Assembly (NCBI RefSeq): GCF_006345805.1
Contig: NC_043021.1
Location: 8,866,001-8,930,000 of the forward strand
Direction of reading: 5' to 3'
From: Octopus sinensis
Lineage: Eukaryota
Length of the DNA: 64,000 nt
The position numbers and the translations under genes are program-made. Below are positions 3,622 through 63,939 of the stretch, one piece after another. The notes under the pieces are model-generated. The model had not been told where the DNA came from. It did not search any database and saw only the letters and a program-made list of their open reading frames with translations. Each line of letters opens with the position of its first letter. Position 1 is the first letter of the stretch.

Positions 3622-4024
3622 AATATTCTTTTCTACTCTGGGCACAAAGGACCGAAATTTTGGGGGAGAGGGCCAGTCGATTAGATCGACCCCACAACGC
3701 AACTGGTGCTCAATTTATTGACCCTGAATGGCTGGAAAGCAAAGTCGACCTCGGCGGAATTTGAACTCAGAACATAAAGCCATACGAAATACCGCTATGC
3801 ATTTCGCCCGACGTGCTAACGATTCTTATTTCTTTATTGCCCACAAGAGGGTAAACATAGAAGGGGCAAACAAGGACAGACAAGGGGATTAAGTCGATTA
3901 CATCGACCCCAGTGCATAACCGGTACTTAATTTATCAACCCCGAAAGGATGAAAGGCAAAGTCGACCTTGGTGGAATTTGAACTTAACGTAAAGACAGAC
4001 GAAATACCTATTTCTTTATTACCC
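3622..4024 (-). mobile_element. SINE-A composite: alpha-tail remnant, then an alpha-tailed unit, then a beta-tailed copy
   Basis: Reverse strand reads ...aaagaaata|ggtatttcgtc...alpha tail aaagaaata|agaatcgttagc...ccccaaaatttcggtcc...agtagaaaagaat. Confidence 0.8.
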
Positions 4025-7256: not shown

Positions 7257-7319
7257 GGCGGCGAGCTGGCAGAATCGTTAGCACGCCGGGCGAAATGCGT
7301 AGCCGTATTTCGTCTGCCG
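7257..7319 (+). mobile_element. 5' head of the SINE-A copy interrupted by the Tx1-like LINE (A-box and left TSD)
   Basis: ggcggcgagctggcagaatcgttagcacgccgggcgaaatgcgtagccgtatttcgtctgccg is nearly identical to the intact head starting at 36412; the SINE resumes after 12686. Confidence 0.95.
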
Positions 7320-7483
7320 CACATGTGTTCGTGAAGTAAGAATTGCTGTTTCGTGGTGTTAATATTGTTAACAACTGTTGTTTCTTGTTAAACTGTTGAA
7401 TAACTTAACTGTTGGAGTTTTCAATTGAAAACACTTAGTGCTTGTGGTAGCACGCGTTGTTCATTCCCCCTTTGGGGGGAAGA

Positions 7484-9011
7484 ATGTCGTCTAGCATGGA
7501 GCCTACCGTTGGAGCAGAAATACTTGTTTCTCCTGTTGAGAGGAGGAAATACATGTCCGGCGAGGAGCCAACTACAGACAAGGAAATAGGGGTTTCCCCC
7601 GCTACAAGAAGGAATAGCAGAGAGGATAATATATTTGATATTTTTGGAGATGTGTCTGAGAGCTCGTCAGAACTTTCACCAGAAGAGTTTCCGACTTTGC
7701 CAGAGAACAAAGGCATTGTGTCGAAGAGAATAATTGATGTGCCTAGCATCCAGATAGAACCAAAAAATGGAAAAAAAAGTTTTGCGTTGGCTGCTGGGGG
7801 TGGAACCCAGATACTGTCGACGAATAAAAGCGAAATTATGAAATACAGCAAAATGATGGAAATAAATGACAACAGTGTGAAAATTGAACCTCCGCAAAAG
7901 TTATTACAGAAGAAAAGCAAAAAACAATAATTTTCAAAACATATTGTCTACAAAATAGAAAAATTGAAAGAATGTCAGAAGAGAAAATAGAAAAGTGCTT
8001 AAAGCCAATATTGGGCGACGTAGTATTTCTGAGAAGAAGAAAAAAATTCGGAACGGTGGAAGTAAGGTTCACCAATAAAGAAATAGCACACAAGAACTCA
8101 GTGGAAACGTTGAAAACGAACGACGTGGAGTTAATACCCTATTATATGGGGATGAGGACGTCGCGAATAAAAATTACAAGGGTCCCGCCAGAGGTCGAAC
8201 CTATGTGGTTGTTGGCGGCAGTCCTAATCAAAGAGGTAGAAAAAATTACTCTCCTCCAGGCTACCGCTACGGAAAACCCACGCTGGGATGGTAAAACAAT
8301 TAATCTTCTCATTCAAGCGGACCCTAAAATAATTCAAACAATTCCTGAGACAATTGAGGTAGGGGAGGAGAACCTCGTGGTGTTTGTTGAGGGCCGAAAA
8401 CCTCGATGTTTTTTATGTGGTCAATTAGGCCACATTCGAAGGAACTGCAAGGAAAATGAAGAAGAGGAGGAAGAGGAGAAAAAAGACAAAGAGGAAGAAG
8501 ATAAAGAAGAAACAGATGAGAAAAAACAACAAACAAAAGAAAAATACAACCAGCAACCCAGCCGAGAGCGGCGACTACTACAGAACAACGACCAAAAAAG
8601 ACTGCCAGAAGAGAAAAAGAAGAAAAAGGCATAATAGCCGTATACACTAAAGATACTGAGCTCATGAGAGACATTCAACTCATAAAGACTGTAAAAAAAA
8701 TTGATAACCTTTCAGAGGAATTTATCAATTACGACATATATGAAGTCTCAAATAAGACTTATAGAATTCTACAAAATAAGTACAGAAAGACTGTATCTTC
8801 ATTGAGATTAGATTTTAACAAGTCGATATTTCATGGATTACCAGCTCCGATCCCGCGAGAAAAGGAAAAGGTGGAGATTCCCCCTCCACCTGATAATTCT
8901 GTGTCGGTGGTGAGACGGGATTTTGACAAATCTATTTCCCAAGACCGTCCACCTCCGACCCTGGATAAAAAAAAGGTGGAGGGTCCCCCTCCACCGGACA
9001 ATCCTAATTAA
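7484..9011 (+). pseudogene. ORF1 (gag-like nucleic-acid-binding protein, one CCHC knuckle), about 510 codons if two 1-nt frameshifts are corrected
   Basis: ORFs 7457-7930, 7972-8634 and 8664-9011 join through overlapping open frames near 7890 (TSAKVITEEKQKTIIFKTY) and 8520-8630 (KKTARREKEEKGIIAVY). CFLCGQLGHIRRNC (CX2CX4HX4C) lies at 8407-8448. Confidence 0.8.
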
Positions 9012-9022
9012 ACAGGTAAGTG

Positions 9023-12000
9023 ATGGCTATTCACATTGGTTGTTTAAATGTTCATGGCCTGTTGTCAAGCTGGAAGCAAGGACGCTTTCTGAATGACATC
9101 AGGTCGAGAAATTTGGATGTAATTGTTGCAACGGAAACCCGGGTGAAGGGGCCAAGAGATCTGCTCCCCCTCCTGAACGGCTACGAGAAATACGTTTCTC
9201 CGAGTCGGGCGGGAGGTGGGGGTGGGGTGTTGGTCCTACTAAAAAGAAACCGGGTAGCCGAGAAAAAGTTGGTTTTTTCTGACCCAGAAGGCAGGCTGGT
9301 CGTTCTCGACTTGACATTCAGTTGTGGCAAGACAATCAGGCTGGTCGCTATTTATGCACCAAACATTATTGGCCCGCAAACTGAATATTTTCGTGGCCTA
9401 GGAAAGTTCCTAGCCACGTCGCATTCACTAGTAGTGTTAGGAGACTCTAATACAATATGTGCAGCACACACAGATTGTGTTGGCTCAAACTCGAACATGA
9501 ACAGAAAATGTAACACAGGCTTTCGGGATCTGCTAAGTCAATTTCAGCTAGCAGATCCATATAGGTTGGAGCACCCGAACACTCCACAGTGGACGTGGTC
9601 AAATAGTGACGGGTCTACCAGAACATATCTAGATAGGATTTTAATTAGAGAAAAAGATAAGTCCATAGTTGAGTGTCCACAGTTTTTTCTAGTCAGCTAC
9701 AGTGACCACAAGATGGTTACCTGTAAACTGACGGTAGATAAGTTGCATAGACAGGGATCTGGCTACTGGAAACTCAATACGTCCCTTTTGGCGATTGAGG
9801 AGTACAGAAAGCGGATCAAGATGTTAATACAGAGGGCATTAACAGGTACCATCATTAATAACAAATGGTGGTACGCCCTAAAAAGAGCCATCAAATATGA
9901 GTCTATTAGGTTTAGCATAAGTTTAGCTAAGAAGGGACGTAAAATAGGAGATGGTCTAGTTAAGGAACTAGAAGAAGCCTGGAGGACTGGTAATACAGAC
10001 CAAGCGAGGGTGAAAAGACTGGAGTTAAACCAGCATCTTGAAGCCCACCACATGGGAAGTATTACCAGAGCTAAGTTACGTGCAATGGGAAGTGAAGGAA
10101 TCAAAGCCGCTGGATGGGCCCGAGTGGTGGAAGCTCGGCAAGGAAATAGTTCCTCTATTCGGTCTTTGACGAATCAAAATGGTGTCTTGATAAACGAACC
10201 CGAGAAAATGTGTGAGGTCTTTCGGGAGTACTTCGCCCAGCTGTTCGGGAGTGACGGCGGTCCTGGTGGTGGGAGAGCCCTCGAGGACTTTCTTACCGGG
10301 CTGCCGTGCCTCTCGGGGTCGGATGCGGAGTCTTGCGAAGGGCCAATCACACTTGAGGAGGTGATGGAGGCTTTGGCCGATTGTAAAGCGGGTAAGTCAC
10401 CGGGACTTGATGGTCTTCCGTACGAGCTGTATAAATGTATGCCAGACTTGTTCGGGCAACTATTGACTGACGTGTACGCGAACTGGAAACAGAATGGGTT
10501 TATCCCCAGATCTGTGCGCCGGGGAGTAGTGACGTTGGTCAGAAAGGACCCGGACAAGGGGGACGTTCTAGAGAATTTCAGGCCCATCACTCTGTTAAAC
10601 GCAGAAGTGAAGATTTTGGCCAAGGTTCTAGCAAAAAGGTTGGCGCGTGTCGCGAATGGTATAGTCGGGGAGGCACAGACATGTGCCATCCCAGGCAGAA
10701 CCATTCAGGATACCCTCCATCTTATTCGCTATACCATAGAGAGGTTTGGTAATAAATCTGGCAAAGGTGGGGCATTGGTGCATTTGGACCAGTCTAAAGC
10801 TTTTGATAGGGTTGACCATCGATACCTAGCGACTGTACTTGCGCGGTTTGGCCTGGGCCTTGGCTTCCTCAGGTGGTTTATCGCTTTGTACCACAACATT
10901 GACTCGATAGTTCGGGTGAACGGTTTCCTTTCGAAGCCGTTCTGCATCAGACGCTCGGTTCGTCAAGGATGTCCGCTTTCACCACTTTTGTATGTGATGG
11001 CTCTCGAGCCATTACTGCAAAGGTTGAGTGGCATCCCGAGAGAACCAGGACTAGAGGAGTTTGTTACGGCTTTCGCGGATGATATCACTATCAGTGTAAC
11101 CACAGTGGTACGCCTACGTGAAGTAGGTAAGACTATTGAGGCTTACGAGGAGGTAGCAGGAGCAAAGATTAACCGGGAAAAGTCGGTCGGCTTGCAGCTC
11201 GGCACCTGGGTTGGCAAGTCGATGCCTTCAGACAGTGTTGTTAGGCGCTGGACGGAGGGACCGGTTAAGTTGCTGGGAGTCTGGTTTGGACCAGGCCTCC
11301 AGATAGAGAAGAACTGGACGGAGGTATTGAGCAGGGTGGCTGCAGTAGTCAAGACTTGGTCTTGGCGGTGGCTATCCCTGAAAGGGAGGGCGGAAGTGGC
11401 CAATGTGTTTATCGCATCGGTCATTACCTACCGCCTGACTGTCGTGCCCTGTCCGGATTCGTGGTTGATCAGGTTGGAGAGACAGCTCTTTCGCTTTTTG
11501 TGGAAGGGCAGGTCGCCACTTGTGAAACGCTCTGTCTGCTGTCAAAAGCCTTTAAATGGAGGTTTAGGGATGCCTTGGTTAATGATGCGCAGACATGCGT
11601 TGAGGTTGAGGCACCTCTGGATTCTCCTGGATAGTGAACGGGTGTGGTCTCCGCTGGCCAGACAAATGTTCCCTGAGTTCAAGAGTTTTTGCGAACAGGA
11701 AGCCTGGTGTTCTCGTAGACCGAGGTCGAGTGAGTGGCATAAAGAGTGCCGTAAGGCCCTCTTGCTGTTCCGGCGCTCGGGCAACGCCAGCGGTGGGGGT
11801 TCCACACGGATTTTATATAGTGGGTTGGTAGAGTCTGAATGCGACGATGGCCTGGGGTCGACTCTAGGTCTCGGATTTATTCAACTGGACAGCTTGTTTC
11901 ATCGTACATTCGGGTTGAGAACGTTGGACAACTTCCAAAAGTCCTTAACCTGGCAATGCTACAGAGGTGCCTTGCCCGTTTGGGATAAGCTCGCAAGACA

Positions 12001-12424
12001 TGGTAAACGTCAGTCGCCGACCTGTCCAAGATGCGGTGGGGACAGGGAAACCGTCCCTCACGCTATTGTTCAGTGTCCGGAGATAACTGAAATGTGGGCT
12101 TATGCTGAACATCTGTTGTCCGGCGAAGGAAGAGTACGGCTGTCGACTGAGTCAATTATAAAAATTGACCCACCGGGAGTTCTAACGAACGAAGGTAAGA
12201 ATTGTTTTCTCACGGTTGTAGCAATAGCAAAAGAGGCTGTATGGAATACTAGGATAAAAGGAATTAAGACAGGCAACTTTATCTCTGGTGACAATTTACG
12301 ATCCTTTTTTTCTTTTCATTTGAAAAGGAAACTGTGGCTGGAGAAGAGGTGTCTGTCAGAGTGTACGTTCCAAAAGAGATGGAAGTATGTTGCACGAGTG
12401 TTGTGCGTGCAAGGAACCGTGTGA
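9023..12424 (+). CDS. ORF2: APE endonuclease, reverse transcriptase and C-terminal zinc-binding domain, 1133 aa from ATG 9023, uninterrupted
   Basis: APE motifs LNVHGL, ATETR, IYAPN, LGDSN, YLDRI, SDH; L1/Tx1 linker WKLNTSLL; RT motifs KSPGLDGL, NFRPITLLN, LDQSKAFDRVDH, RQGCPLSPLLY, AFADD; GGLGMP; CPRC...H...C. Confidence 0.97.
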   Translation: MAIHIGCLNVHGLLSSWKQGRFLNDIRSRNLDVIVATETRVKGPRDLLPLLNGYEKYVSPSRAGGGGGVLVLLKRNRVAEKKLVFSDPEGRLVVLDLTFSCGKTIRLVAIYAPNIIGPQTEYFRGLGKFLATSHSLVVLGDSNTICAAHTDCVGSNSNMNRKCNTGFRDLLSQFQLADPYRLEHPNTPQWTWSNSDGSTRTYLDRILIREKDKSIVECPQFFLVSYSDHKMVTCKLTVDKLHRQGSGYWKLNTSLLAIEEYRKRIKMLIQRALTGTIINNKWWYALKRAIKYESIRFSISLAKKGRKIGDGLVKELEEAWRTGNTDQARVKRLELNQHLEAHHMGSITRAKLRAMGSEGIKAAGWARVVEARQGNSSSIRSLTNQNGVLINEPEKMCEVFREYFAQLFGSDGGPGGGRALEDFLTGLPCLSGSDAESCEGPITLEEVMEALADCKAGKSPGLDGLPYELYKCMPDLFGQLLTDVYANWKQNGFIPRSVRRGVVTLVRKDPDKGDVLENFRPITLLNAEVKILAKVLAKRLARVANGIVGEAQTCAIPGRTIQDTLHLIRYTIERFGNKSGKGGALVHLDQSKAFDRVDHRYLATVLARFGLGLGFLRWFIALYHNIDSIVRVNGFLSKPFCIRRSVRQGCPLSPLLYVMALEPLLQRLSGIPREPGLEEFVTAFADDITISVTTVVRLREVGKTIEAYEEVAGAKINREKSVGLQLGTWVGKSMPSDSVVRRWTEGPVKLLGVWFGPGLQIEKNWTEVLSRVAAVVKTWSWRWLSLKGRAEVANVFIASVITYRLTVVPCPDSWLIRLERQLFRFLWKGRSPLVKRSVCCQKPLNGGLGMPWLMMRRHALRLRHLWILLDSERVWSPLARQMFPEFKSFCEQEAWCSRRPRSSEWHKECRKALLLFRRSGNASGGGSTRILYSGLVESECDDGLGSTLGLGFIQLDSLFHRTFGLRTLDNFQKSLTWQCYRGALPVWDKLARHGKRQSPTCPRCGGDRETVPHAIVQCPEITEMWAYAEHLLSGEGRVRLSTESIIKIDPPGVLTNEGKNCFLTVVAIAKEAVWNTRIKGIKTGNFISGDNLRSFFSFHLKRKLWLEKRCLSECTFQKRWKYVARVLCVQGTV

Positions 12425-12670
12425 ATAGACGAGGAAAAAAAAAAAAGGAAAAATAAAAAGGTATCAGCGGTAGATCGGGGCTTGTGGGATCGGAGCGTAA
12501 CTTGATCATCGCTTCATTTGTATTGTTTTTGTACTGTGTATTCCATTCGATTTTTATGTATTGTATTTTAATTTTGATGTCACATTTATGTAAAATCATA
12601 TCGATTCACTGATCCCATCAGTTGTACTGTCCATATCTATGTTTGGCCCCCGGTGGGCAATAAAGAAATT

Positions 12671-13076
12671 CGTATTTCGTCTGCCGTTACGTTCTGAGTT
12701 CAAATTCCGCCAAGGTCGACTTTGCCTTTTGTCCTTTCGGGGTCGATAAATTAAGGACCAGTTACGCACTGGGGTCGATATAATCGACTTAATCCGTTTG
12801 TCTGTCCTTGTTTGTCCGCTCTGTGTTTAGCCCCTTGTGGGTAGTATAAAGAAATAGGTATTTCGTCTGCCGCTACGTTCTGAGTTCAAATTCCGCCGAG
12901 GTCAACCTTGCCTTTCATCCTTTCGGGGTCGATTAACTAAGTACCAGTTACGCACTGGGTTCGATTTAATCGACTTAATCTTTTGTCTGTCCTTGTTTGT
13001 CCGCTCTGTGTTTAGCCCCTTGTGGGTAGTAAAGAAATAGGTATTTCGTCTGCCGTTACGTTCTGAGTTCAAATTC
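12671..13076 (+). mobile_element. Remainder of the host SINE-A: 2.2 tandem units
   Basis: gtatttcgtctgccg starts at 12672, 12858 and 13041; B-box gagttcaaattcc; Nin/Deu-like ggtcgactttgcctttcatcctttcggggtcgataaa; alpha tail. Confidence 0.95.
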
Positions 13077-13353
13077 ATATATATATAATAGAGCGCATTG
13101 AGTTGCAAGGAGCAATCCCGATGTATTTCATTCGACGGGTAAGTCCTGGATTCGCTTCACAGGATTATAAGTATTTTACCGAGCGTGTATCGGAGACAAT
13201 TTTACAATAAATACGGCAGCAGAAACGTGCGTGGGACACTTTTAAATGAAATATGGTGAATGATTGACGGTGGAAATGAGAAAATATGAAAATGTCCTCA
13301 ATCTCCGTATTCATCGTAATTGTCTTGCACACAAACACACACACAAGTGTGTG

Positions 13354-25829: not shown

Positions 25830-26188
25830 AATATCGGTTTCAAATTTTGGGACAAGGCCTGTAATTTCGGGTGAGGGACTAAGTCGATTATATTGACCCC
25901 CGTGTTCAAATGGCCCTTATTTGAACTCAGAGCGTAAAGACGGACGAAATATCGTTTAGCATTGTGCTAACGATTCTTTTTTTTTCTAGGCGCAAGGCCT
26001 GAAATTTTGGGGGAGGGAGCCAGTCGATTAGTTGATCCCAGTACGCAACTGGTACTTAATTTATTGACCCCATAAGGATGAAAGGGAAAGTCGACCTCAG
26101 CGGAATTTGAACTCAGTACGTAAAGACAGACGAAATACCACTAGGCATTTCGCCCGGCGTGCTAACGATTCTGCCAGCACGCCGTCTT
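25830..26188 (-). mobile_element. Two adjacent SINE-A copies (beta-tailed 25986-26188; internally deleted gamma-tailed 25830-25976)
   Basis: Shared head and central domain, non-alpha tails. Confidence 0.8.
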
Positions 26189-26846
26189 ATAAGTGAGTTC
26201 GACTGCTGGACCGGGTTGTATGTTGTGTTCTTAAGCAAGATACTTTATTTCACGGGACTCCAATTCACCCAGCTGTAGAACTGAGTTGTGACGTTACTGG
26301 GCGCCAAGCTGTTTCGGCTTTTGCCTTTCCCTTGGACAACATCGGTGACGTGAAGTGGAGAGACTGGTATGTATGGGTGACTGCTGGTCTTCTATAAAAA
26401 AAAACAACTTTTCCCGGAGTTATGCCTCATTCATCACCGTAGGGGGGGGGTCTTTATCTTTATCCTATCTCTATTCTTTGATCTGGAACTGGATGATATA
26501 GCTTCTATGATGTTATTGTGACCAGGAGCTGGTTTTCATAGATTCTACATGAACCTTTGAGCAGGATCTTCTTGTTACGGCTTCTAGAATTGCTCTCATA
26601 TCTTACAATCTCTCCATGTTGCAGAGAGGTCGGCACGAGACCGTTGATGGAGAGCGTTGGTGGGCCTGGTTGGCTCTACGCATGTTGACGTCTCTAGGAC
26701 CACCAACCTGGGATTCCCCAAGCCTCATCAAGCAAAGGCATGAAGCGAAACGTGCGTATAGTCTCTCCAGTGATCAGGGGTTGGATGTTATTGTGTCTAC
26801 ACTTTTATTGTGCCATAGGGTTACATAGGGTTATAGTTGCTACACC

Positions 26847-27073
26847 TATTTCTTTACTACCCACAAGGGGCTAAACACAGAGAGGACAAACAAGGACAAA
26901 CGGATTAAGTCGATTATATCGACCCCAGTGCGTAACTGGTACTTATTTAATCGACCCCGAAAGGATGAAAGGCAAAGTCAACCTCGGCGGAATTTGAACT
27001 CAGAACGTAACAGCAGACGAAATACGGCTAAGCATTTCGCCCGGCGTGCTAATGATTCTGCCAGCTCGCCGCC
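26847..27073 (-). mobile_element. Full-length monomeric alpha-tailed SINE-A with 15-bp TSD
   Basis: tatagttgctacacc at 26832-26846 and 27081-27095. Confidence 0.93.
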
Positions 27074-27142
27074 TTGTTGCTATAGTTGCTACACCGTTCC
27101 GTGATAGAGCTGGATGTTAGAATCGTTGCTATGATCTTGTTA

Positions 27143-36411: not shown

Positions 36412-36790
36412 GGCGGCGAGCTGGCAGAAACGTTAGCACGCCGGGCGAAATGCGTAGCCGTATTTCGTCTGCCGTTACGTTCTGAGTTCAAATTCCGCCG
36501 AGGTCGACTTTGCCTTTCATCTTTTCGAGGTCGATAAATTAAGTACCAGTTACGCACTGGGGTCGATGTAATCGACTTGATCCCTTTGTCTGTCCTTGTT
36601 TGTGCTCTCTGTGTTTAGCCCCAGCAAGACACTTCGTTTCACGTTGCTCCGGTTTACTCAACCGTATATGAGAAACCCTGTAACGGAATGGCTTCCAATT
36701 CAGTGGGGTTTATGCGATCTTGCTAACTTAAACGCCAGGGGAACCGGGGAAGCGGCCCTATGAACCTCGTGGCTTGAGACAATAATGCCT
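36412..36790 (+). mobile_element. Alpha-tailed SINE-A (36412-36622) fused to a diverged Meta-like SINE 3' part
   Basis: Near-consensus SINE-A to gtttagcccc, then agcaagacacttcgtttcacgttgctcc. Confidence 0.85.
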
Positions 36791-39129: not shown

Positions 39130-41990
<2,861 letters not shown>

Positions 41991-43154: not shown

Positions 43155-45379
43155 GTATATATATATGTATATATATAAAATTAGAAGTGAAAATATTATC
43201 ATTATTATTATTATTATTATTATTGTTGTTGTTGTTGTTGTTATTAACACAAACAGCGGTTTCCTATTGAGCAAAATAATATATTCCAGAGGTCAATATC
43301 CAGTGTGTTATCCTTTTCTCTCTGTGATGTCATTTATATGCTAATGTTATCACACGCATTTTGCGTGCTTGCGTGTGATTGGGCCTATTGAAGATGGCGA
43401 CTACTAGCTGGATGAAAGAGTCGGCTATGCAATTGACTTAGAACTTGCGAACGTCAAAAGGAACATATGTGACTACGGCTGTATTTATATAAACATTGTA
43501 CAAGCACGACAATGGTGCTTTACATTAACAACGAGCTTTCACTCCATAACCCATATGTGACAGAAGCTCGGCTGCGATGCTTTGTTGTCGGAGCGAAATG
43601 GAAAGATTTTCTAGACTCTAATTATATAAATAAAAAAAAAATTGCTTTTATCTGAAGCGGATACCATGGCCATTCGAAAAAGTTTGGTAACAGTGAAATA
43701 ACAAGAAACAATGAAATTTAGAACCATCGTCTCCCTGATAATGTCTCTATGCAAGTCCATCCCAAAGGAAACTGATAATTGCTTAAAGGTTTATTGTGTT
43801 AACTGTTGTGTCTGGGGAGAGTCATTTTCTTTTTGGTGCCTTGTAATGTAACACAATCACCGGTAAAAATTTCCACTTATTTTTATTTTCCTAAAATTTT
43901 CGTTTCTGCCAGCTCGCTGCCTTTAGTTTAGTTTCTTAACTCTGGTACTTATTCTATCGGTCTGTTTTACCAGCCCACAAAGTCAAAGGGACACAAACAA
44001 ATCAACACCGGTAATGGTGGTGAGGGACAAACACAAACACAATCACACGCACACACTACAGGCTTCCGTGCAGTTTTTTTTCGACTAAACCCATTCACAA
44101 GGCATAAGTCAGCGCGGAACTATAACAGAATACATTTGCCCAAGTTCCACGCATTCGATCTGAACCTGAAACCACATGGTTGCACGGTGAGCTTGTTAAC
44201 CACGCAGTGATGCCTGCGTCAACGGCGTCAGTATCCCGGGTGAGTTAATATAAAAATGAAATTCTACAAATAAAAAAAAAAGTAAAGAAATTTAATAGCT
44301 CTGCAAGTATTTATGGAACTGGCATTGAGTAAAGTAAAATGGCCTCCGTGAAACTTCATATAATGTAAAATTGTGTTTAAAATGCAGCCAGATAACCACT
44401 ACAATATCTTACAGTCTCTGGATGGGTTTCAATGAAGCAATTGCTATCTAAAACGATTTGATGGATTATTCACCGAAATTTTGGGAAAATTTGATGTATT
44501 AATGGAAATTGATAAAAGAATGGATGCGGTGGCTGCTGTTGCTGGTGAATATAAGAAGAAAAAATACGATGGTGTATTTGGTATGGACGTGATGAATGTG
44601 GGTAGTTCAGCATTAATTCATGAAAGTGAAACTGCAGCGCATTTCAGAGATTAAGAGGTTTTAAGGTTAACATTTTTGTCAAAGGAAATATCAGGTCGTT
44701 ATTTTGAGGCAAGACCATTACCAATACACATTAAAACCATTAGTCATAGCAAAGCTGAGGAAACTAATTAATGATATAGTAGGAGACTGCTTTTCATCTT
44801 CTCAAGGTTTTTGAGTTCATTCAACCACCAACTTGAAGTATGCAATTAAAGAAAAGTTTCTTTGAAAAGAATGGTGTTACCAGGTCACTTCTCTGACGAT
44901 GTTCACCAATCTTAAGGAAAAAAAAAATTTTTTATCTCAGCTTTTATGCGTTGCGTTACAGGAGTTTAATAACTATCATACAAATTTTGCAAGACTCGCG
45001 AACAGAAGAAAGGTTTCGATTTATTTTTAAATTTTAGTTAATGCTGAATGGAAACTATGAAAACATGTAGAGTATGTAGTAATATGTTAATGTGTATAGC
45101 AATAATGCTTTGCATGAAAAGTCTTGTTCATTTCCTGTGTATTTACTGCGGAAAATTACCAGTATTTTTTTTTTCTGTTTGTGAGTTTATTTTATTCCTT
45201 GCATTTATATGTTGTAAGACACGCTCTTTGAAAATATGTTTAAAAATATGGAAGATGTACCAAACTTTTGAAAGGCATGTAAAACATAATAGTCATGCTT
45301 CTTCATTAATTTCACGGCGTGGGTGTTTCATTTCCCAAAGAATCTACTTACAGAATCACAGCCAGTGAATGAATGGATT

Positions 45380-46740
45380 CCGGTCAAGACCGGTACAACA
45401 CAAAAGCCATGCTGGCACCAAAGGAACTTGATACTATGAGTGCGATCACCATTATCTCGATCGTCGTCTTCAGTACAAGTCCTCTGTTGATAATGTGTAC
45501 AGCAATACCCTTACTTTCTGTAACTACAGCTGTCAGATATTAATTTGTGGTTATGGCCAAGTCATGGGGCGTTGCATGTCAATTTTCCACATCTGTGCAA
45601 TGAAAGCCAATCGAGCAAACAATTTCCAATCAGCCTCTGATATCAACATCCTTTTACTTTTTGACAACCTTTTGGATGGGTTAAAGAATACATCACCTAA
45701 AACTGCTTCAGTCTTTCTTTACCCCCAAAACAAGAAAAATGCAAATCTGCTGGCACCAACGTATTCAACTTCCAACATGTCCCGCTTCACCTTATCAAAG
45801 ACAACTACACCTGAAGACGGACGCAAGAGGTCTGTACTCGCAATACGAAGTGGACTGGCTATGCTGTGTTGCACTAACGCTGTCCTGCTAACGTCCTCAA
45901 TACTTTGTTTCAGACTCTTTCTTTGCCTTACATAATCCACCATTTTGCACGGATTTCTTTTGGCTGAGCCCGTACGCCAAATAAGTACAGTACCCTGATC
46001 CTGTGTGCTGCATATAACCCCTTCTTTGGTCTTAGTGTCACTCTGGCAAGTTCTTTTCATGTACATGCTCTATTCTACCTCTACAAGCTCGTGTCCTTCT
46101 TGACTCTGACTAGCAAATTTACCTTCAAACAAAACAGTATGTGCCGAAGTATCTGCAGTGCACGAACTACACATTTCGAAATAATATGGGAAGCACTCCG
46201 TCGGTTACGACGATGAGGGTTCCGGTTGATCAGAATCAACGGAACAGCCTGCTCGTGAAATTAACGTGTAAGTGGCTGAGCACTCCATAGACACGTGTAC
46301 CCTTAACGTAGTTTTCGGGGATATTCAGCGTGACACAGAGAGTGGCAAGGCTGGCCCTTTGAAATACAGGTACAACAGAAACAGGAGGTAAGAGTGAGAG
46401 AAAGTTGTGGTGAAAGAGTACAGCAGGGATCACCACCATCCCCTGCCGGAGCCTCGTGGAGCTTTAGGTGTTTTCGCTCAATAAACACTCACAACACCCG
46501 GTCTGGGAATCGAAACCGCGATCCTATGACCGCGAGTCCGCTGCCCTAACCACTGGGCCATTGCGCCTCCACTCGAAATAATATACTCAAAGGTACAATG
46601 CAGAGTTAGGCCTATCATACGCAAGCATCCCATGAAAGGATTCTTCGAATGGTTGACAGATGCCGCACGCAGTTACCTGTTCTTGATGCTCTGATGATGA
46701 GAAAAGCATTCGCAGCCATAACCACTTACGTTGATCAGAA
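45380..46740 (-). pseudogene. Decayed DNA-transposon coding relic (tentatively Academ-like), interrupted by SINE-C
   Basis: Minus strand ...SEADWKLFARLAFIAQMWKIDMQ resembles a motif I associate with these transposon proteins; many stops. Confidence 0.3.
46188..46572 (-). mobile_element. Full-length SINE-C with 12-bp TSD
   Basis: tcgaaataatat at 46176-46187 and 46573-46584; A-box tggcccagtgg, B-box ggtttcgattcc. Confidence 0.93.
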
Positions 46741-46749
46741 TATAAATAA

Positions 46750-46980
46750 GGCGGCGAGTTGGCAGAAACGTTAGCTCGCCGGGCGAAATACTAAGCGATA
46801 TTTCGTCTGCCGTTACGTTCTGAGTTCAAATTCCGCCGAGGTTGACTTTGCCTTTCATCCTTTCGTGGTCGATAAATTAAGTTCCAGTTATGCACTAGGG
46901 TCGATATAATCGACTTAATCCGTTTGTCTGTCCTAGTTTGTTCCCTCTATGTTTAGCCCCTTGTGGGCAATAAAGAAATA
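46750..46980 (+). mobile_element. Monomeric alpha-tailed SINE-A
   Basis: Tail tctatgtttagccccttgtgggcaataaagaaat (46946-46979) is the closest match to the LINE 3' end. Confidence 0.93.
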
Positions 46981-47083
46981 AGATTGTAACTGTTGAACTT
47001 TCTCGGCGCATTTTATGTACATAACCTTTGAAAGCTGAAACTAGAACTTTAAATTCTTCAACGCATGTGATATCCAGAATCTC

Positions 47084-47482
47084 GGGGCGGTGAGCTGGCA
47101 GAAACTTTAGCACGCTGGACGAAATACTTAGCAGTTTTTCGTCTGTCTTTATGTTCGAGTTCAAATTCCGCCGAGGTCGACTTTGCCTTTCATCCTTTCA
47201 TGGTCGATAAATTAAGTTCCAGTTATGCACTAGGGTCGATATAATCGACTTAATCCGTTTGTCTGTCTTTGTTCATCCCCTCTGTGTTTAGCCCCTTGTG
47301 GGTAGTAAAGAAATAGGTATTTCGTCTGTCGTTTATGTTCTGAGTTCAAATTCCGTCGAGGTCGACTTTGCCTGTTATCCTTTCGAGGTCAATAAACTAA
47401 GTACCAGTTGCGTACTGGGGTCGATCTTATCGACTGTACCCACTCCCCAAAATTTTCGGGCCTTGTACCTAGAGTAGAAAAG
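47084..47482 (+). mobile_element. Heterodimeric SINE-A (alpha unit then beta unit) with 15-bp TSD
   Basis: gatatccagaatctc at 47069-47083 and 47483-47497; internal junction aaagaaatag|gtatttcgtc at 47317. Confidence 0.9.
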
Positions 47483-47596
47483 GATATCCAGAATCTCTCG
47501 CCCACTAAACCCAATCTGCAATTTCTCTACAAGACCACATATAATTATATTTCCATTTCTCCTTTTTATTGTTTTAATAGTCATAAACCAAAACCA

Positions 47597-48060
47597 AGGC
47601 AGTGAGCTGGCAGAATCGTTAGCACGCCGGACAAAATGCTTAGCGACATTTTGCTTGTCTTTACGTTCTGAGTTCAAATTCCGCTGAGATCGATTTTACT
47701 TTTCATTCCTTTCAGGTCCGATATAATAAGTACTAATTGAACAACGCTGTCGGTATAACCACCTTACCCACTCCCCAGAACTTGCTGGCCTTGTCGCCAA
47801 AATTTTAAAACAATATTCATATATCAAATCATGGTGGTGTGCTGGCAGAATCGTTGACATGCCGGGCAAAATGCTTTGCGCTGTTTTTCCTCGTCCTTAC
47901 GCTCTGAGGTAAAATTTCGCCGAGGTCGACTTTACCTTTCATCCTTTAGGAGTCGATAAAATAAGTACCAGTTGAACAATACTGCCGATGTAATCGATTT
48001 ACCCCCTACTCTGAACTTGCTGTCCTTTTGCCAAAATTTGAAGCCAATATTCATATATCA
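47597..48060 (+). mobile_element. Two tandem gamma-tailed SINE-A copies
   Basis: Both end gaacttgctg...ccaaaattt...caatattcatat. Confidence 0.8.
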
Positions 48061-48230
48061 CATTTATTAAGTAACAGGAAACCGCTTTTTGTATTTCCTT
48101 TTTTCTTTTTGAAGTGATAGTAATTCAATGCTTTACTTTCGTTTGGAAGAGATGGTAACTGTAGAAGCACTCGGTTGCATACTTTTTTTTTTTCAGCTTT
48201 TACCAGACTGTTTCACTCGCATGTAATTAC

Positions 48231-48429
48231 CTATTATTATGTTCTGCTCGTATCTTATTTGCCTGTCAGAATATACATTCCTCTGGGAACATGTGACATT
48301 TCCTCTACTTTCAATGTCCGACCTTGACACCAGATCGCAGCCGACATTTTCTTGCTGGTTTATCCTACACCTTAGATTGTCAACTCGTTCGTCATCGAGT
48401 TGATTCATATCAGTTCTCTCATCAGGCAT
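48231..48429 (-). CDS. Possible first coding exon of an unidentified host gene
   Basis: Non-repetitive open frame MPDERTDMNQLDDERVDNL...EQNIII ending at AG|GTAATT; no homology recognised. Confidence 0.2.
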
Positions 48430-48584
48430 AATGACCAAAAAGGACAGTGTGTTATGTAGAAAAACTATGTTTCAATCAAGAAGAAAGTATTTCTGAATGA
48501 ATTCCATCGTACGAAAGATTCACATTGACAAAACTTAATTTTTAAAATCCACTATCGTATATTTAAACATATTTTACTCTATTA

Positions 48585-48955
48585 ATTGTTCCAGTCATTT
48601 GACTGCGGCCATGCTGGAGCACCGCCTTTAGTCGAAGAAATCGACCCCAAGACTTAAGCCTAGTACTTATTCCATCGGTCTCTTTTTTTGCCGAACCGCT
48701 AAGTTATGGGGTCGTAAACGCACCAGCATCGGTTGTCAAGCGATGCTGGGGGGGGGGACAAACACAGACACACAAACACACATATATATACGACGGGCTT
48801 CTTTCAGTTTCCGTCTACCAAATCCACTCACAAGGCTTTGGTTGGCCCGAGGCTATAGTAGAAGACACTTGCCCAAGGTGCCACGCGGTGGGACTGAACC
48901 CTGAACCATGTAGTTCGTAAGCAAGCTACTTACTACACAGTCACTCCTACGCCTA
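48585..48955 (-). mobile_element. SINE-B, near full length
   Basis: Colinear with 31255-31722. Confidence 0.9.
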
Positions 48956-49182
48956 TATGGTAAATCATTATTTTGTAACTCCATTTGTAACTTTTTGCCT
49001 TTCATCCTTTCGGGGTCGATAAATTAAGCACCAGTTGCTTACTGGGATCGATCTAATCGACTGGTCCCTCCCCAAAAATGTTGAGCCTTGTGCCTAGAGA
49101 AGAAACGATTATTACAATCTTTATTTATTCATTCACGCATTTCTCTTCAAATGTTTTTATGTACACGTATGGTATTATAGCA

Positions 49183-49484
49183 AACTAGCAGTATCGCCCG
49201 GCGTTGCTCGGGTTTGTAAGGGAAATAACTATATAAGCATTTATAGAGAGTTACTTCCCTTATATAAACCGAGCGAAAATGAATTAAAAATGCGGAAAAA
49301 TTATGGTAATTTTTTTTTTAATCGTAGACTCATCGTAGACGCGCGCTAATACCCAGAAGGGCTCGATATGAATTACGACTATAAGATACCCGCTTTTGGT
49401 TAAACTGCACCGCAAAATGTGGGAGTAGTTAGGAATCTAAATCGTAGGAGACAGACACACAACTTCACTTTTATATATAAAGAT
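49183..49484 (+). mobile_element. Second Helentron/HINE-type element
   Basis: Same 5' end as 30077; 3' end ttttatatataaagat; different interior. Confidence 0.65.
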
Positions 49485-49814
49485 ATTCTGCTCAATATCA
49501 CAGATTTGCTTGTCAGTTGCTTGACCTTAACCACTTAAGCATGTCCCTTAGTGGTTGACAATATGTGCATTTCAGATGATGAGCAGGAGTAGTAGGGGAA
49601 CATCATAGCCATGTGCTGAGAGGGTTTGAATAAATGTAAGAAAAGCAATGTTTGAAGGAAATATTAACCATTTTTCATATTTTCTAATGGTAAGCAAATA
49701 GGAAATAATAGTTGCTACCCAAAGACAAAAATCGTATTATATAGTGTAATATGACTTAAGTTAACCATCACACTTTCCCGAGTTTCCAATAGGGCAAAAT
49801 TATAAACCGTTTGT

Positions 49815-49920
49815 TTTCTAACCACGTGGTTCCAGGTTCAGTCCCACTGTGTAGGACCTTGGGCAAGGCTTTTCTACTATATCCTCAGGCAAACCAAAAC
49901 TGAAGGAATCCTGTCTTAAA

Positions 49921-49965
<45 letters not shown>

Positions 49966-50172
49966 CTTTGTGTCTATGTTTGTCCCCACCACCGCTTGAC
50001 AACCAAATGTTGGTGTGTTTACGTCCTCATAACTTAGTGGTTCGGCAACAGATACCGATAGAATAAGTATCAGGCTTTAAAAACTAAGTACTGGGGTTGA
50101 TTCATTCGTCTAAAACTTCTTCAAAGCGGTGCCCCACCATGGCCGCAGTCTAATGACTGAAACAAGTAAAAG
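49815..50172 (+). mobile_element. Older SINE-B copy
   Basis: ggttcagtcccactg...ccttgggcaag...(TG)n...atggccgcagtctaatgactgaaacaagtaaaaga. Confidence 0.8.
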
Positions 50173-50737
50173 ATACTTTACAATATCCGTATTCGCTTAG
50201 TCCCGTAACCTGAAGTCGTCGTAACGCGAGGGATGACTGTGTGTTCATTATCGCATGTTTATCAAAATAGCAAGTTTATAAAATTGCTGATGTCACAGAA
50301 GTATTGATAACAACTTCTTAGACAGACGAAGTTGCAGCACAATTCACTGTCGTCTGCTCTTCATTACATCGATACCTTGGGTCACGTACGCACTTTCTTT
50401 CATGATACGGCTCCGACAATTTCTTTCGGTCGGTTGCGGGGATTTTTCCCTCCGTAATTTATTGCCTAACTTGACAAATTTGTACAAAAAAGATCGAGTT
50501 TTGTTAACTTTATCGAATTTCATGGGACCTAGTCGATACGTGCGTAGTTGTGACAGGCCATTTCAGCCAATTGCAATGGCTGGTTTTAACGCCTCTTTGC
50601 ATTTCAAAATAGATCAGTCCTCTTCAAATTCATAAAAGATGTAGCTTTTAACAGCTTTTAATCGGAGTTAGATATTATCTACTTAACAGATCCAGTGTCG
50701 CACGAAATTTAAAATTCTCACAACTATATAACTCACA

Positions 50738-50768
<31 letters not shown>

Positions 50769-51529
50769 GCGCGCGCACACATGCACACATGCACACACAT
50801 CCATCATAACAAAACAAATAAAATCTGTTTTATGGACTCCGTGTCATACTGTCATTTTAATTATTCTCGTGAATAACGAATGTCTCATGCAGACAATTAT
50901 TCTCACGAGCTTTGTCTTCATTCGATATTTTTAGTTTTGCTCATATGGAATGTCTCAAGGATTTTTGTCTTTTTTTTTTTAATTCTTTTCTTTTAAGCTC
51001 ATAAACATTCTTTGTAAATATGAGCAGTGTTTTTTTTTATGTTTAAATATTCTTCCACTGAAATGTATCATGTCGCTTATTAACTTCTGTTTTCATTCAA
51101 TGTTGACTTTTATAATCTCTCATACGTCTTGATCTTTCGCGATCGACGTATTTAAAGAAATGAAAAAACAAATTGTGAATATCTTTCGTTGTCATTTTCA
51201 TATTTTTTTGTTATTTTAGGATGTTTTTTTTTTTTCCTGTTTACAACTTATTCTACGTCATCAATGCGCATTTTTATAACGGTTCAACCGACTCTTGACA
51301 CGTGTTGGCTGTGCAACAGTAAATGATTCGGTTAACGTGCAGTTTAGTATGGTAAAAAAAAAAAAAAAGGTGAAAGTAAATTGTTCTAAAAACAATGAAA
51401 GTAAATTGCGCTACAAACCTAAAGTGATGACACTGATATCCCATAATTTCGAGTAAACAACGTATGTGACATAACCAGTGTATAGAATGTATAGATATTA
51501 CAACAGGAAAACTCTTGCTGCCCGAACAT

Positions 51530-52160
51530 GTTAGTTAGTTAGTTAATTTGGCTCAAAAGCAAATAGCAAGGCCATGTAGGGGGACATGGAGTTAAGTACA
51601 GGGTGGTGTTCATGTAAAGAGTTCAGGCCACTTGAGGTCAAGGGAGGCTTTGAACAAAGCGGTCGTCGGCATCTTCACCATCTCGTCTGGCAGCTTGTTC
51701 CACGGATCCGCAACCCGGACGGAGAAAGCTCCTCTCCTTCGATTGAGATGAAATCGTCGCAGGTAGAGCTTTTCGGAATGACCCCGCAACCGACGCTCTG
51801 GAGCAGGAGTGAAGAACAGCTCTTTCGAGAGGTTACACTTTCCGCTTATGATGTTGTGGGCGAGAATGAGATCACCACGGCGGCGGCGTTTTTCAAGAGA
51901 ATAAAGGTCGAGCGTCCTCAGCCTTTCTTCGTAGGACAAATTTTTGAGACCATGAACCATGCGGGTAGCCAGCTTCTGGACTCTTTCGAGATGCTGTATG
52001 TCTTTGAGGAGATAAGGAGAAGAGGCTTGAATCCCATACTCCAATATGGGTCTCACCAGCGTGACATAGAGTGGTAGGAATATGGCTGCTGTGAGCATTC
52101 CGAATGACCGTCGAATCAAGAACAGAATTCCGCGTGCTTTGTTGGCAGCATGGACGCACT
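51530..52160 (-). mobile_element. 5'-truncated CR1-clade LINE (ORF2 C-terminus 52119-51610, 3' UTR, (AACT)n tail)
   Basis: LVRPILEYG...LERVQKLATRMV...SYEERLRTLDLYSLEKRRRRGDLI...LRGH...FSVRVADPWNKLP...FKASLD. Confidence 0.92.
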
Positions 52161-52384
52161 ATCACTTGCAAGTCACACCAGGGGCCCACTCCAAGTTGTA
52201 ACTATCGAGAATGAGAAACTTGCCCACTCATCGAGGCATGTATGATTAGCTTAGTGCTCCATAAAAATAAGTACATTGATATATGCGAACGTGACTTTAA
52301 AATGAAGATACGCTAATCAGCAGTCTTCTTTCCAACATGTGGATAAGAAGAAAGCCACGAAGTGAACTAGACATCTGAAAACTA

Positions 52385-52778
52385 GTGGAAGTGGTGGAAG
52401 CACTCCGTCGGTTACGACGATGAGGGTTCCGGTTGATCCGAATCTACGGAACAGCCTGCTCGTGAAATTAACGTGTAAGTGGCTGAGCACTCCACAGACA
52501 CGTGCACCCTTAACGTAGTTCTCGGGGATATTCAGCGTGACACAGAGAGTGACAAGGCCGGCCCCTTGAAATACAGGTACAACAGAAACAGGAAGTAAGA
52601 GTGAGAGAAAGTTGTGGTGAAAGAGTACAGCAGGGATCACCACCATCCCCTGCCGGAGCCTCGTGGAGCTTTGAGGTGTTTTCGCTCAATAAACACTCAC
52701 AACGCCCGGTCTGGGAATCGAAACCACGATCCTATGACCGCGAGTCCGCTGCCCTAACCACTGGGCCATTGCACCTCC
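52385..52778 (-). mobile_element. Full-length SINE-C with 14-bp TSD
   Basis: acatctgaaaacta at 52371-52384 and 52779-52792; highly similar to 46188-46572. Confidence 0.93.
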
Positions 52779-53614
52779 ACATCTGAAAACTAACTACATA
52801 CTACACACCATCAAGTGGAGCATCGTGGAACAAGGAGAGGCAGGCTTTGTTTATCCGAAAAATCTCATATTCTTAGTTCTAAGAATTCAACTGATCTGCT
52901 AAATTCCAGATGTGAGGTTTTTATTAAATGGCAGCTACTGGACAAGTATTTTTTTACTGACAGGGAAAACAAACACCCCTCGCACAAACTTTGATTGTCT
53001 CTTTGTTGAATTAACATACATCCACCTTATTAATTGCGATTCGAACAAACCAAAGGAACGTAACTCTTGATTTTCCTTTTTCCTTTTTCTTTTTCCCATT
53101 TTCTCATTCCACATTTTGTTTTTACTTTCCTCTCGTTCTTTCTCCTGTTTTCTCGAAGACCATCTCGCTTTTTTCTTTTATTTTTTTATCATAAAAGACC
53201 AGCCATCTTGTATAGTTGAACCTGAAATATTGCTTGGAAAAACACGGCACGCCATACAAGCCTGCCCGACAATTGTGTTTTGACACTATGAAACTAATAG
53301 TAGATCGAACTTAAATTTGACGTATATTAAATTAACGATATTTTTGTGTGTAATTGCTGCGTGGGTTGTTGTCAAATCGTATATGTGAGGAAGTGACAGA
53401 ATGTGCATGTGTGTAGGGATAACGATATTGATGAAACCCCTGGGATGGAAAGAGCAAATTGGTAAGTGTTATTCGTGTGTGTGCAAGTACATAAACGAAA
53501 CAAGCCCGGGAAGAAAAGTGGGTTTTTTTTCCCGAGCTTGAGACTGCAATATTGTCAACTTCACTTCCGTGAGAAACTGCGCACACTCCAACAGTCGCAG
53601 TTTCCATCAGTTAA

Positions 53615-53922
53615 CCCCTTACCCGGCAGAAACGAATATATGCGTTTTGACCGAAATCGTTTTTTTCTATCTCTGGTGAGTTAACTCGTCAAAAGATATA
53701 CTCGCCAAAATCGACAGCAAACGAGTTCCTTCGTCTAAAAACGGGTTAACTCGTTTCTGCCCAAAACGGTAATTTAAAATCAATATTATTGAAATAAAAT
53801 TCATAATAAATAAGGTTTGAAATATACCTCGAAATCACCATTCAAAACATAGTAAAATAAAACAATTAAAAAATATGTCTGAAAAAATACATTTGTTTTC
53901 AAAATAATTGTTGGGTAAGGGG
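53615..53922. mobile_element. piggyBac-type MITE
   Basis: TTAA-ccccttaccc ... gggtaagggg-TTAA. Confidence 0.8.
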
Positions 53923-54446
53923 TTAAAGAACCGGCTTATCCTAATGCTTCTACCTGAGACACGTCGTATTAAGGAACTTCAAGTCATTCCCCTCTCCCCT
54001 AGCCTCATAACCCGGATATAGAGCCCAAAGCCTAGTAGAATATTTATAATTCCTGCTGCTATTGAGATTACAGAATACCATTATTCATATTGGCCGTGCA
54101 GACTCATAGGTAACTGTCGTTGCTAAAGTACTATATACGTTCTAGAATGCCGACTAACTGGCACCAACATCTTGCCCGTCTACCATGTGGGGATTACGAC
54201 GAAAGAACTGATGGCGCTAGGATGGAAAAAAAAACCCCACGTGACCTGAACTGATCGATGGAGATCTAACTAAATATTCTCACCTAGAAGCCAGTTCAAA
54301 TTTTCTGTAAATTCTTTTCCCTCTGAATACGAACATGTGATATGGATGTGTTTTCCGTCCACGAAACTTTAAGTGGAGCCGAGACAAACGGTCATTCAGT
54401 ATCCATAACTCCATCTAAACATATTGGGTGCTGCTTTATTTCGTTT

Positions 54447-54516
<70 letters not shown>

Positions 54517-54586
54517 CAGATAGACAGACAGACAGACAGACAGTTAGATAGACAGACAGACACACAGATAGACAGGTAGATAGATG

Positions 54587-54671
<85 letters not shown>

Positions 54672-54742
54672 CTAGATAGACAGACAGACAGACTGACAGT
54701 TAGATAGACAGACAGACACACAGATAGACAGGTAGATAGATG

Positions 54743-54839
<97 letters not shown>

Positions 54840-58516: not shown

Positions 58517-58890
58517 AGGCGGCGAGCTGGCAGAGACGTTTGCACGTCGGACGAAACGCTTAGCAGCATTTCGCCTGCCGCTACGTTCTGAGTTCAAATT
58601 CCGCCGAGGTCGACTTTGCCTTTCATCATTTCGGGGTCGATAAATTAAGAACCAGTTGCGCACTGGGGTCGATATAATCGACTTAATCCGTTTGTCTGTC
58701 CTTGTTTGTCCCCTCTGTGTTTAGCTCCTTGTGGGTAGTAAAGAAATAGGTATTTCGTCCGAGTTCAAATATCGCCGAGATCGACATTGTTTTTCATCCT
58801 TTCAGGGTCGATAAAATAGGTACCAGTTGAGCTTTGGGGGTCAATTTAATCGATTTACCCCTCCTCGGAATTGCTGGTTTCAAACCAGAC
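58517..58890 (+). mobile_element. Heterodimeric SINE-A (young alpha unit then old gamma-type unit)
   Basis: Junction aaagaaatag|gtatttcgtc at 58750; the second unit is visibly more diverged and ends gaattgctgg. Confidence 0.85.
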
Positions 58891-58974: not shown

Positions 58975-59310
58975 ATCTTGTACCATTATGTAAATGAGTC
59001 GAATCATCATGTAAAGAATTTGCATTATTATGCAAATGAGCCGTATCACTATGAAAATGTGGTTTACTATTATGTAAAGGGGCTGCACCATTATGTTAAT
59101 GAGTTGCACTTTTACGTAAATGAACGAACTATTATGTAAATGAGTTGCACCATTATGTAAATTAGTTGTGCTATTATAAAAATGAGATGTGCTATTATGA
59201 AAATAGAGGGTGCTATTATGTAAACGAGTTGTGCTGTTATGTAAATGAGCTGCACAATTATGTAAATGAGTCATGCTGTTATGAAAAATTAGACTGCTAT
59301 TATGAAAATG
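58975..59310. repeat. Degenerate ~21-bp minisatellite
   Basis: Unit approximately attatgtaaatgagttgcacc. Confidence 0.85.
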
Positions 59311-59316
59311 TTATTA

Positions 59317-59916
59317 AGGCGACGAGCTGGTAGAATAGTTAGCAGGCCGAGCAAAATGGTTAGCGGTATTTCGTCTGCCGTTACGTTCTGAGTTCAAATT
59401 CCGCCGAGGTCGACTTTGCCTTTCATCCTTTCGGGGTCGATTAAATAAGTATCAGTTACGCACTGGGGTCGATATAATCGACTTAATACGTTTGTCTGTC
59501 CTTGTTTGTCCTCTCTATGTTTAGCCCCTTGTGGGTAATAAAGAAATAGGTATTTCGTCTGCCGTTACGTTCTGAGTTCAAATTCCGCCGAGGTCGACTT
59601 TGCCTTTCATCCTTTCGGGGTCGATTAAATAAGTACCAGTTACGCACTGGGGTCGATGTAATCGACTTAATCCGTTTGTCTGTCCTTGTTTGTCCTCTCT
59701 GTGTTTAGCCCCTTGTGGGTAATAAAGAAATAGGTATTTCGTCTGCCGTTACGTTCTGAGTTCAAATTCCGCCCAGGTCGACTTTGCCTTTCATCCTTTT
59801 GGGGTCGATTAAATAAGTACCAGTTACGCACTGGGGTCGATATAATCGACTTAATCCGTTTGTCTGTCCTTGTTTGTCCTCTCTGTGTTTAGCCCCTTGT
59901 GGGTAGTAAAGAAATA
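59317..59916 (+). mobile_element. Trimeric alpha-tailed SINE-A
   Basis: One head; units at 59366, 59550 and 59734 (period 184). Confidence 0.95.
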
Positions 59917-63423: not shown

Positions 63424-63939
63424 CCGAGGTCGACTCTGCCTTTCATCCTTTCGGGGTCGATAAATTAAGTACCAGTTACGCACTGGGGTCGATGTAATCG
63501 ACTTAATCCGTTTGTCTGTCCTTGTTTGTCCCCTCTGTGTTTAGCCCCTTGTCGGTAATAAAGAAATAAATATTTGGCCTGTCGCTACGCTCTGAGTTCA
63601 AATTCCACCGAGGTCGATTTTGCCTTTCATCCTTTCGGGGTCGATAAATTAAGTACCAGTTACGCACTGGGGTCGATGTAATCGACTTAATCCGTTTGTC
63701 TGTCCTTGTTTGTCCCCTCTGTGTTTAGCCCCTTGTCGGTAATAAAGAAATAAATATTTGGCCTGTCGCTACGCTCTGAGTTCAAATTCCACCGAGGTCG
63801 ATTTTGCCTTTCATCCTTTCGGGGTCGATAAATTAAGTACCAGTTACGCACTGGGGTCGATGTAATCGACTTAATCCGTCTGTTTGTCCTTGTTTGTCCC
63901 CTCTGTGTTTAGCCCCTTGTAGGTAGTAAAGAAAGAAAA
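63424..63939 (+). mobile_element. 5'-truncated trimeric alpha-tailed SINE-A with 15-bp TSD
   Basis: aatatgcattttctt at 63409-63423 and 63940-63954; units at 63570 and 63754 (period 184). Confidence 0.95.

Follow-up and report, generated by a model that had tools for sequence, protein, structure and literature searches.

The element at 47069..47497 (plus strand) of the window, by which we mean the whole 64-kb stretch of DNA analysed here, is a SINE heterodimer in which two units with different tails lie within a single target-site duplication (TSD). The preliminary description had drawn one 15-bp TSD around a head, an alpha-tailed unit, a junction and a beta-tailed unit, and this was confirmed by exact 15-mers at 47069..47083 and 47483..47497. 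The 15-mer has no third occurrence on either strand of the window, and when 30-nt stretches 430 bases apart were paired at random within 43300-54800, none of the 20,000 pairs shared 15 letters or more, the maximum being 14. Between the two copies, all on the plus strand, lie the 5′ part of a tRNA-like head (47085..47132) with an A-box-like motif at about 47096-47107, a left copy of an inner target of non-alpha type (47133..47148), the body of unit 1 (47149..47250) with a B-box-like motif at about 47157-47169 and alpha-type letters in its 3′ half, and the alpha tail of that unit (47251..47315). There follow the right copy of the inner target (47316..47331), which forms the canonical junction, carries T at target position 13 and is one base longer than either type, then the body of unit 2 with beta-type letters (47332..47434) and its beta tail (47435..47482), which ends at the outer duplication and therefore points to an outer insertion primed from the beta end. 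The box motifs were picked by eye, and their labels follow the Pol III consensus. Unit 1 is 184 bp long; its tail is 92.5% identical to another alpha tail over 67 nt, and the tail of unit 2 matches three other beta copies at 80-84%. Plain tandem duplication was rightly excluded at the outset, since it cannot give two tails. In the left inner target an A-to-T change creates a run of five T residues (47135-47139), which, judged by sequence, is likely a Pol III stop in the dimer head.

About 20 loci in the window, which is rich in microsatellites, match the dimer and make up one SINE family, whose copies have a common tRNA-like head and body followed by one of three tails, designated alpha, beta and gamma. 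In each of three sequencing runs, 211,446-252,719 contigs aligned to a 1066-bp stretch, as befits a short, interspersed, high-copy SINE. ARAGORN found 0 tRNAs in the head and Rfam gave no tRNA match there; the head partially matches that of another SINE, the criterion for a tRNA-derived head being at least 60% over 60 nt. A different tRNA-headed SINE at 46190-46572 (minus) is presumably like octopus OR1/OR2. Folding of heads and tails gave no z-score beyond -1.3; the head at 39800-39885 can form one long imperfect stem with the target on the 3′ arm near the loop, at a z-score of -0.5 that falls within the shuffles. Assignment to the MetaSINEs, which carry a 66-bp Meta domain after the head, was dropped, as the bivalve Meta consensus rows in the available part of PMC4824008 are unlike this element by eye, and six short motifs, four of them from this SINE body, were absent from the accessible portion of its MetaSINE supplement.

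The three tails differ in relatedness and in age. Alpha and beta tails align with a local score of 19, equalled by 21 of 2000 shuffles and thus marginal, and the alpha-gamma score was equalled by 1409 of 2000, so that by sequence comparison alpha is not clearly homologous to either, whereas beta and gamma are related to each other (0 of 2000 shuffles as good). Copies are on average 0.90 identical to one another in the alpha family (112 pairs, each spanning two loci), 0.82 in beta and 0.75 in gamma (6 pairs in each of these two), which makes alpha the youngest family and gamma the oldest. TSDs of 15 bp at the dimer, 15 bp at 26847 and 12 bp at 39800 were recognised, and none was found at 7 of the 11 SINE elements examined; a 16-bp match at 47833 could be a tandem duplication instead of a TSD. 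Four family members, namely an alpha monomer, the dimer and two gamma copies, stand in one orientation within 1.3 kb (46750-48060), and the same 16-bp word comes directly after each of these gamma copies, a product of either target duplication or tandem duplication.

A LINE without a poly(A) end, whose 3′ end resembles the alpha tail, occupies 7320..12670 (plus) and is itself inserted in a copy of this SINE. The head of the host (7257..7319, plus) ends in the left 16-bp target copy (7304-7319), and the right copy (12671-12686) opens the rest of the host, which comprises two alpha units and a cut third (12671..13078, plus). A zinc-knuckle frame lies at 7888-8634 and ORF2, of 1134 aa, at 9020-12424, with Pfam matches to PF00098 (CCHC knuckle, ORF1) and, in ORF2, to PF03372, PF00078 and PF13966 (endonuclease, reverse transcriptase and zinc-binding domains, respectively). 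This set agrees with the make-up of the Tx1 clade, although such domains alone do not split Tx1 from other L1-group LINEs; the best named match among 63 was a coral 'Transposon TX1 149 kDa protein' (31% identity, E 2e-90). The element is accordingly called Tx1-like. The ORF1 region (7451-9011) runs across three reading frames and ORF2 is open over 1134 codons, a contrast that may reflect frameshifts or assembly errors.

The LINE ties the dimer to a defined insertion site. Its duplication, identical at 16 of 16 positions, covers the motif found at 47133-47148 and at 47316-47331, that is, both inner target copies of the dimer, which upholds the proposal that the dimer junction is the LINE's site. 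A host-specific C is kept on both sides of the LINE, which puts the cut immediately ahead of the target motif; because the LINE keeps the C of that position on both sides, the target copy in the dimer starts at 47316, and the junction previously placed at 47317 is real with its first base one position to the left. The target falls between the A- and B-box-like motifs, so that a 184-bp unit has the B box without the 5′ part of the head. The last 45 nt of the LINE resemble the final ~45 nt of the alpha tail of unit 1 more closely than in any of 2000 shuffles (0/2000), as expected of a LINE-derived alpha tail, whereas the same LINE end matched neither the beta tail (1605/2000 shuffles as good) nor the gamma tail (1152/2000). 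No partner LINE was found for the beta or gamma tail. A LINE 3′ fragment at 51531-52158 (minus), which ends in short tandem repeats, is presumably CR1-like and has no Pfam match, was considered as their source and rejected, there being no tail match in it. The site specificity of the LINE is read from one copy (n = 1).

The distribution of junctions in the window argues for a fixed register. Alpha tail ends adjoin the target at one register in 10 of 17 cases and beta or gamma ends in 0 of 10 (Fisher p 0.003), or, counted by loci, in 7 of 10 against 0 of 10; the cut alpha tail at 36622 was left out of these counts, and most of the ten are alpha-alpha junctions, in which the units of an array are not independent. 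After none of 11 junctions (10 SINE, 1 LINE) is there a nested second head. Two of the ten SINE junctions are mixed, namely that of the dimer at 47069, the one alpha-beta dimer at the canonical register in the window, and that of 58518..58890 (plus), where a head and an alpha unit precede an older gamma-tailed unit. We also observed a second nesting register, in the A-box region, at which alpha precedes beta at 3828 (minus; 3623-4024) and beta precedes gamma at 25976 (minus; 25833-26186); it is used by one alpha tail and one beta tail whose end matches the site, and an alpha-tail joint to it also occurs in run X13. Alpha arrays are found at 39800-40214, 59318-59916 and 63424-63936; private letters shared by units within the array at 39800, and likewise by the units at 63569/63753, indicate local duplication or conversion after the first junction, and a degenerate 21-bp tandem repeat (58982-59310) stands directly before an alpha trimer.

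A predominance of alpha-first dimers had been put forward as a sign of targeting by the Tx1 machinery, and this test is a weak one. All four mixed elements in the window have the younger family first, and age alone predicts that order. Alpha-first order is no proof of targeting, because any nested insertion of the youngest family would produce it and recombination with alpha arrays would also yield it. The evidence for targeting is the fixed register at the LINE's cut, not the order. Alpha copies with duplications of their own also lie outside the target (26847 and 39800), which makes the targeting a preference. The alpha monomer at 26830-27090 (minus), outside any SINE, is flanked by a 15-bp duplication whose first letters resemble the canonical target, and 7 additional letters stand at its 5′ junction.

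Letters flanking the junction help to tell resident from donor sequence. Target position 15 is G in 13 of 15 alpha-tailed units and T in unit 1, as in the beta and gamma copies, the other non-alpha start among alpha-tailed units being that at 4007 (minus). Unit 1 thus begins with a non-alpha target, as would be expected if a beta resident had left it there, and it is alpha in body and tail from about 47200 onward; a non-alpha target joined to an alpha body and tail fits a beta-resident left target followed by alpha cDNA. The right copy is ambiguous, because the T at target position 13 of unit 2 also occurs in two alpha units and because the copy has one extra base; on sequence grounds an alpha/beta hybrid is another reading of it. 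In the second mixed element, an alpha-type head at 58518 is combined with a right target copy, in the gamma unit at 58750, whose position 11 is C, the gamma-type letter. With respect to age, non-CpG changes number 17 in 189 positions of the resident parts and 6-8 in 148 of the insert (p 0.08-0.30), so that by this comparison the insert is less diverged, though not significantly. Between the copies of the inner duplication 2 of 15 places differ, and between those of the outer 0 of 15 (p 0.48), which is opposite in direction to the younger inner duplication that would be expected.

The dimer locus also bears the trace of a local exchange. Unit 1 and the neighbouring alpha monomer at 46750..46980 (plus), 335 bp upstream, differ at 2 of 95 positions within 47173..47267 (plus) and at 24 of 138 outside (p 0.0002, with borders chosen after looking), and among the other alpha units the one nearest to unit 1 has 7 differences in 95. 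The letters of this tract are rare: by summed contig depth in the three runs, the other letter makes up 96-98% at 46883/47218, 90-93% at 46897/47232 and 85-93% at 46866/47201. An A common to 46790 and 47126 was dropped as evidence for conversion, G reaching only 77-87% there. Local gene conversion is the simplest and probable cause of this ~95-bp tract, with the upstream monomer as partner, though a polishing artefact may account for it instead. The exchange did not make the junction, because the neighbour's tail continues into unique DNA; it does blur dating, and indicates that DNA-level exchange acts at the dimer locus. The earlier reading of the dimer, supported in part, had overlooked both the near-identical tract and the headless state of the insert.

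Sequences from related organisms give partial views of the locus. A contig from another organism (run X20, record 20) covers 46960-47126 with 6 of 167 letters different, so that this organism shares the neighbour, spacer, left duplication and head. Among the contigs listed for the three relatives' runs X13, X19 and X20, none spans the dimer, and no empty allele was seen; contigs spanning this type of junction are present in X19 and X20 (records 15 and 22). In organism C, the spacer (47043-47078) and the right flank (47547-47582) both have single-copy depth. In X19 and X20, the summed depth of contigs over the end of the alpha tail and the junction (47295-47330) is ~72% of the maximum over the body, as against 5% in X13, hinting that this alpha tail variant expanded after organism C split off, contig depth being no copy number. 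Exact patterns from the junction or body had 0 matches in metagenome, prokaryote-genome and viral collections.

Our preferred explanation, to which we assign a probability of about 0.6, is a Tx1-driven insertion of alpha RNA into a resident beta copy at this locus, with the 5′ end joined by homology. A beta-tailed, tRNA-derived SINE would have inserted first, creating the outer 15-bp duplication. Later, proteins of the Tx1-like LINE may have bound alpha SINE RNA through its LINE-derived 3′ end, mobilising it in trans, and their endonuclease would have been specific for the ~16-bp site between the A- and B-box-like motifs that every family member carries, reverse transcription being primed at the cut. 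Head and target occur both in the alpha RNA and in the DNA left of the cut, so the cDNA could have annealed there, and second-strand synthesis in register would leave the observed order of head, target, alpha unit, target and beta unit. A headless insert calls for such a homology-guided 5′ join, and it is because of this join that no second head would appear. Gene conversion between unit 1 and the alpha copy lying 335 bp upstream would afterwards have homogenised ~95 bp of the two. The independent insertion of alpha into a resident beta element at the LINE's site, as originally put forward, is thus the most likely model, supported in part by anatomy, register and tail homology, while the occurrence of that event in place, and the order of steps at the dimer locus, are what we infer from them.

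Several simpler origins can be set aside. Unequal crossover with the neighbour would duplicate spacer and head; conversion of the last tail of an alpha-alpha dimer to beta is contradicted by the natural end of the beta tail on the duplication; and a microhomology join of a tail end and a head would keep seven letters that are absent at the junction. Two others compete more closely with insertion in place, and we regard each as unlikely. The heterodimer may have formed once elsewhere by the same targeting and then, as a member of a dimeric subfamily, been copied to this locus in one piece by way of its beta tail, which would suit a perfect outer duplication alongside an inner one with 2 differences, ages of resident and insert that are not separable, and the alpha-alpha dimer at 39800 that lies inside one 12-bp duplication. 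Besides the T5 run at 47135 and a T4 run at 47453 (both absent from most copies), the units have no run of four or more T residues, so that a read-through dimer RNA seems plausible. Yet the window's four mixed elements vary in how they are built and in which families they combine, the trend is to a younger insert, and beta looks older than alpha, so that the LINE that served beta may no longer have been active.

Import of the junction from an alpha-alpha array, through template switching on beta RNA or gap repair of a beta copy, is improbable to much the same degree. It would keep the outer duplication and always put alpha first, and it could draw on common donors, there being 5 multi-unit alpha loci; units within an array are often near-identical (0.91-0.99), which indicates that DNA-level exchange acts on alpha arrays, conversion touched unit 1 itself, and the opening of unit 2 permits a reading in which 15 alpha letters precede beta sequence. 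Such an import predicts alpha-type letters past the junction, whereas in unit 2 position 13 is T and the target is followed by three T residues, and at 58750 the gamma-tailed unit keeps its gamma-type C at position 11; the only close donor, at 46750, has no junction after its tail, and the first junction and the LINE's duplication are left unexplained. That assembly or polishing joined or homogenised neighbouring repeats is very improbable: mis-mapped reads could have produced the tract common with the neighbour, and the dimer is unspanned by the contigs listed, but the outer duplication is exact, the contig from another organism (X20, record 20) includes the neighbour's tail, spacer, left duplication and head, junction-spanning contigs occur in X19 and X20, and a second mixed element uses the same register.

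The closest known counterpart of the preferred in-place insertion is the crocodilian SINEU-3, which, in the available parts of Kojima 2015 (PMC4494074), is moved by Tx1-Mar LINEs into a Mariner element and forms tandem copies that are read as sequential insertions, not as a subfamily. As in that system, the SINE and a Tx1 lineage prefer the same target, this target is another repeat, the duplication is ~16 bp and tandem copies sandwich a duplication. Unlike SINEU-3, whose head is U1/U2-derived and whose target is a Mariner DNA transposon according to those parts, the octopus SINE has the target in its own tRNA-like head, and would insert into itself and older kin with seamless loss of the insert's head. 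The target-specific Tx1 families summarised in the same sections, namely Xenopus Tx1L in Tx1D, Keno in U2 and Kibi/Koshi in microsatellites, likewise are endonuclease-reverse transcriptase LINEs at a fixed site of a multicopy sequence; the target here is a tRNA-derived SINE, a kind not named in those portions of PMC4494074. A target-specific family is defined there by more than 20% of copies at one sequence kind, and one LINE copy is available here.

With regard to the 5′ join, R2 RNA that carries upstream 28S sequence gives uniform 5′ junctions through annealing of cDNA to the target, and injected R2 RNA with upstream target sequence gave more than 80% precise junctions (Eickbush et al. 2013, PMC3774820, in the parts available). 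The alpha template similarly includes sequence upstream of the target, the annealing step here being our supposition. In contrast to R2, which those parts describe as autonomous, with a restriction-like endonuclease and rDNA as its target, the element is non-autonomous and of Pol III type. Tandem SINE arrays of the blood clam (PMC11481361) and SINE-derived satellites of squamates (PMC10702118) are ascribed to unequal recombination in the accessible portions of those papers; there too the first unit has a full head and later units are head-truncated, and mixed-family arrays occur, but their inner tails are truncated, whereas here the inner tails are complete and the register is the LINE insertion site. 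Surveys of octopus repeats, as far as their available text goes, list L1-Tx1 and abundant SINEs without a link between them (PMC13282606, PMC8967140), and L1-Tx1, RTE, CR1 and Dong-R4 LINEs are reported as active in O. vulgaris (PMC13282606, available part). The mainly open-access literature covered, with Repbase and Dfam outside its scope, described in its accessible portions neither a Tx1 element that targets a SINE head nor a SINE that targets itself, which is weak evidence that either is new.

Octopus tRNA-derived SINEs of high copy number with a tRNA-like head, named OK, OR1 and OR2, were reportedly described by Ohshima and Okada in 1994, and the present family resembles them in both respects. 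The dimer is a single element without evident function, and taken alone it is a nested insertion; its value lies in the evidence it gives for a SINE that carries the target of its partner LINE. Our results suggest that the element carries its own landing site and builds chains of itself. A broader picture, held tentatively and at somewhat less than even odds, is of a Tx1 lineage specific for a site in the tRNA-like head of the SINE family that is most abundant in the genome, and of one SINE subfamily that captured the LINE 3′ end, inserts seamlessly into its own kind, including older kin, replaces their expressed tail, seeds 184-bp arrays genome-wide and takes over the promoters of its rivals.

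If this is true, Tx1 retrotransposons would have a new kind of target, the SINE's own promoter region, and there would be a retrotransposition route from dispersed SINE to tandem arrays, for which unequal recombination is the usual explanation. One SINE subfamily would then grow by landing in the head of another. Heterodimers are informative in this respect because the letters flanking the junction separate resident from donor; thousands of them may exist, and would map the 5′ joining of a SINE in vivo. The matter also bears on the annotation of a genome with a very abundant SINE family.
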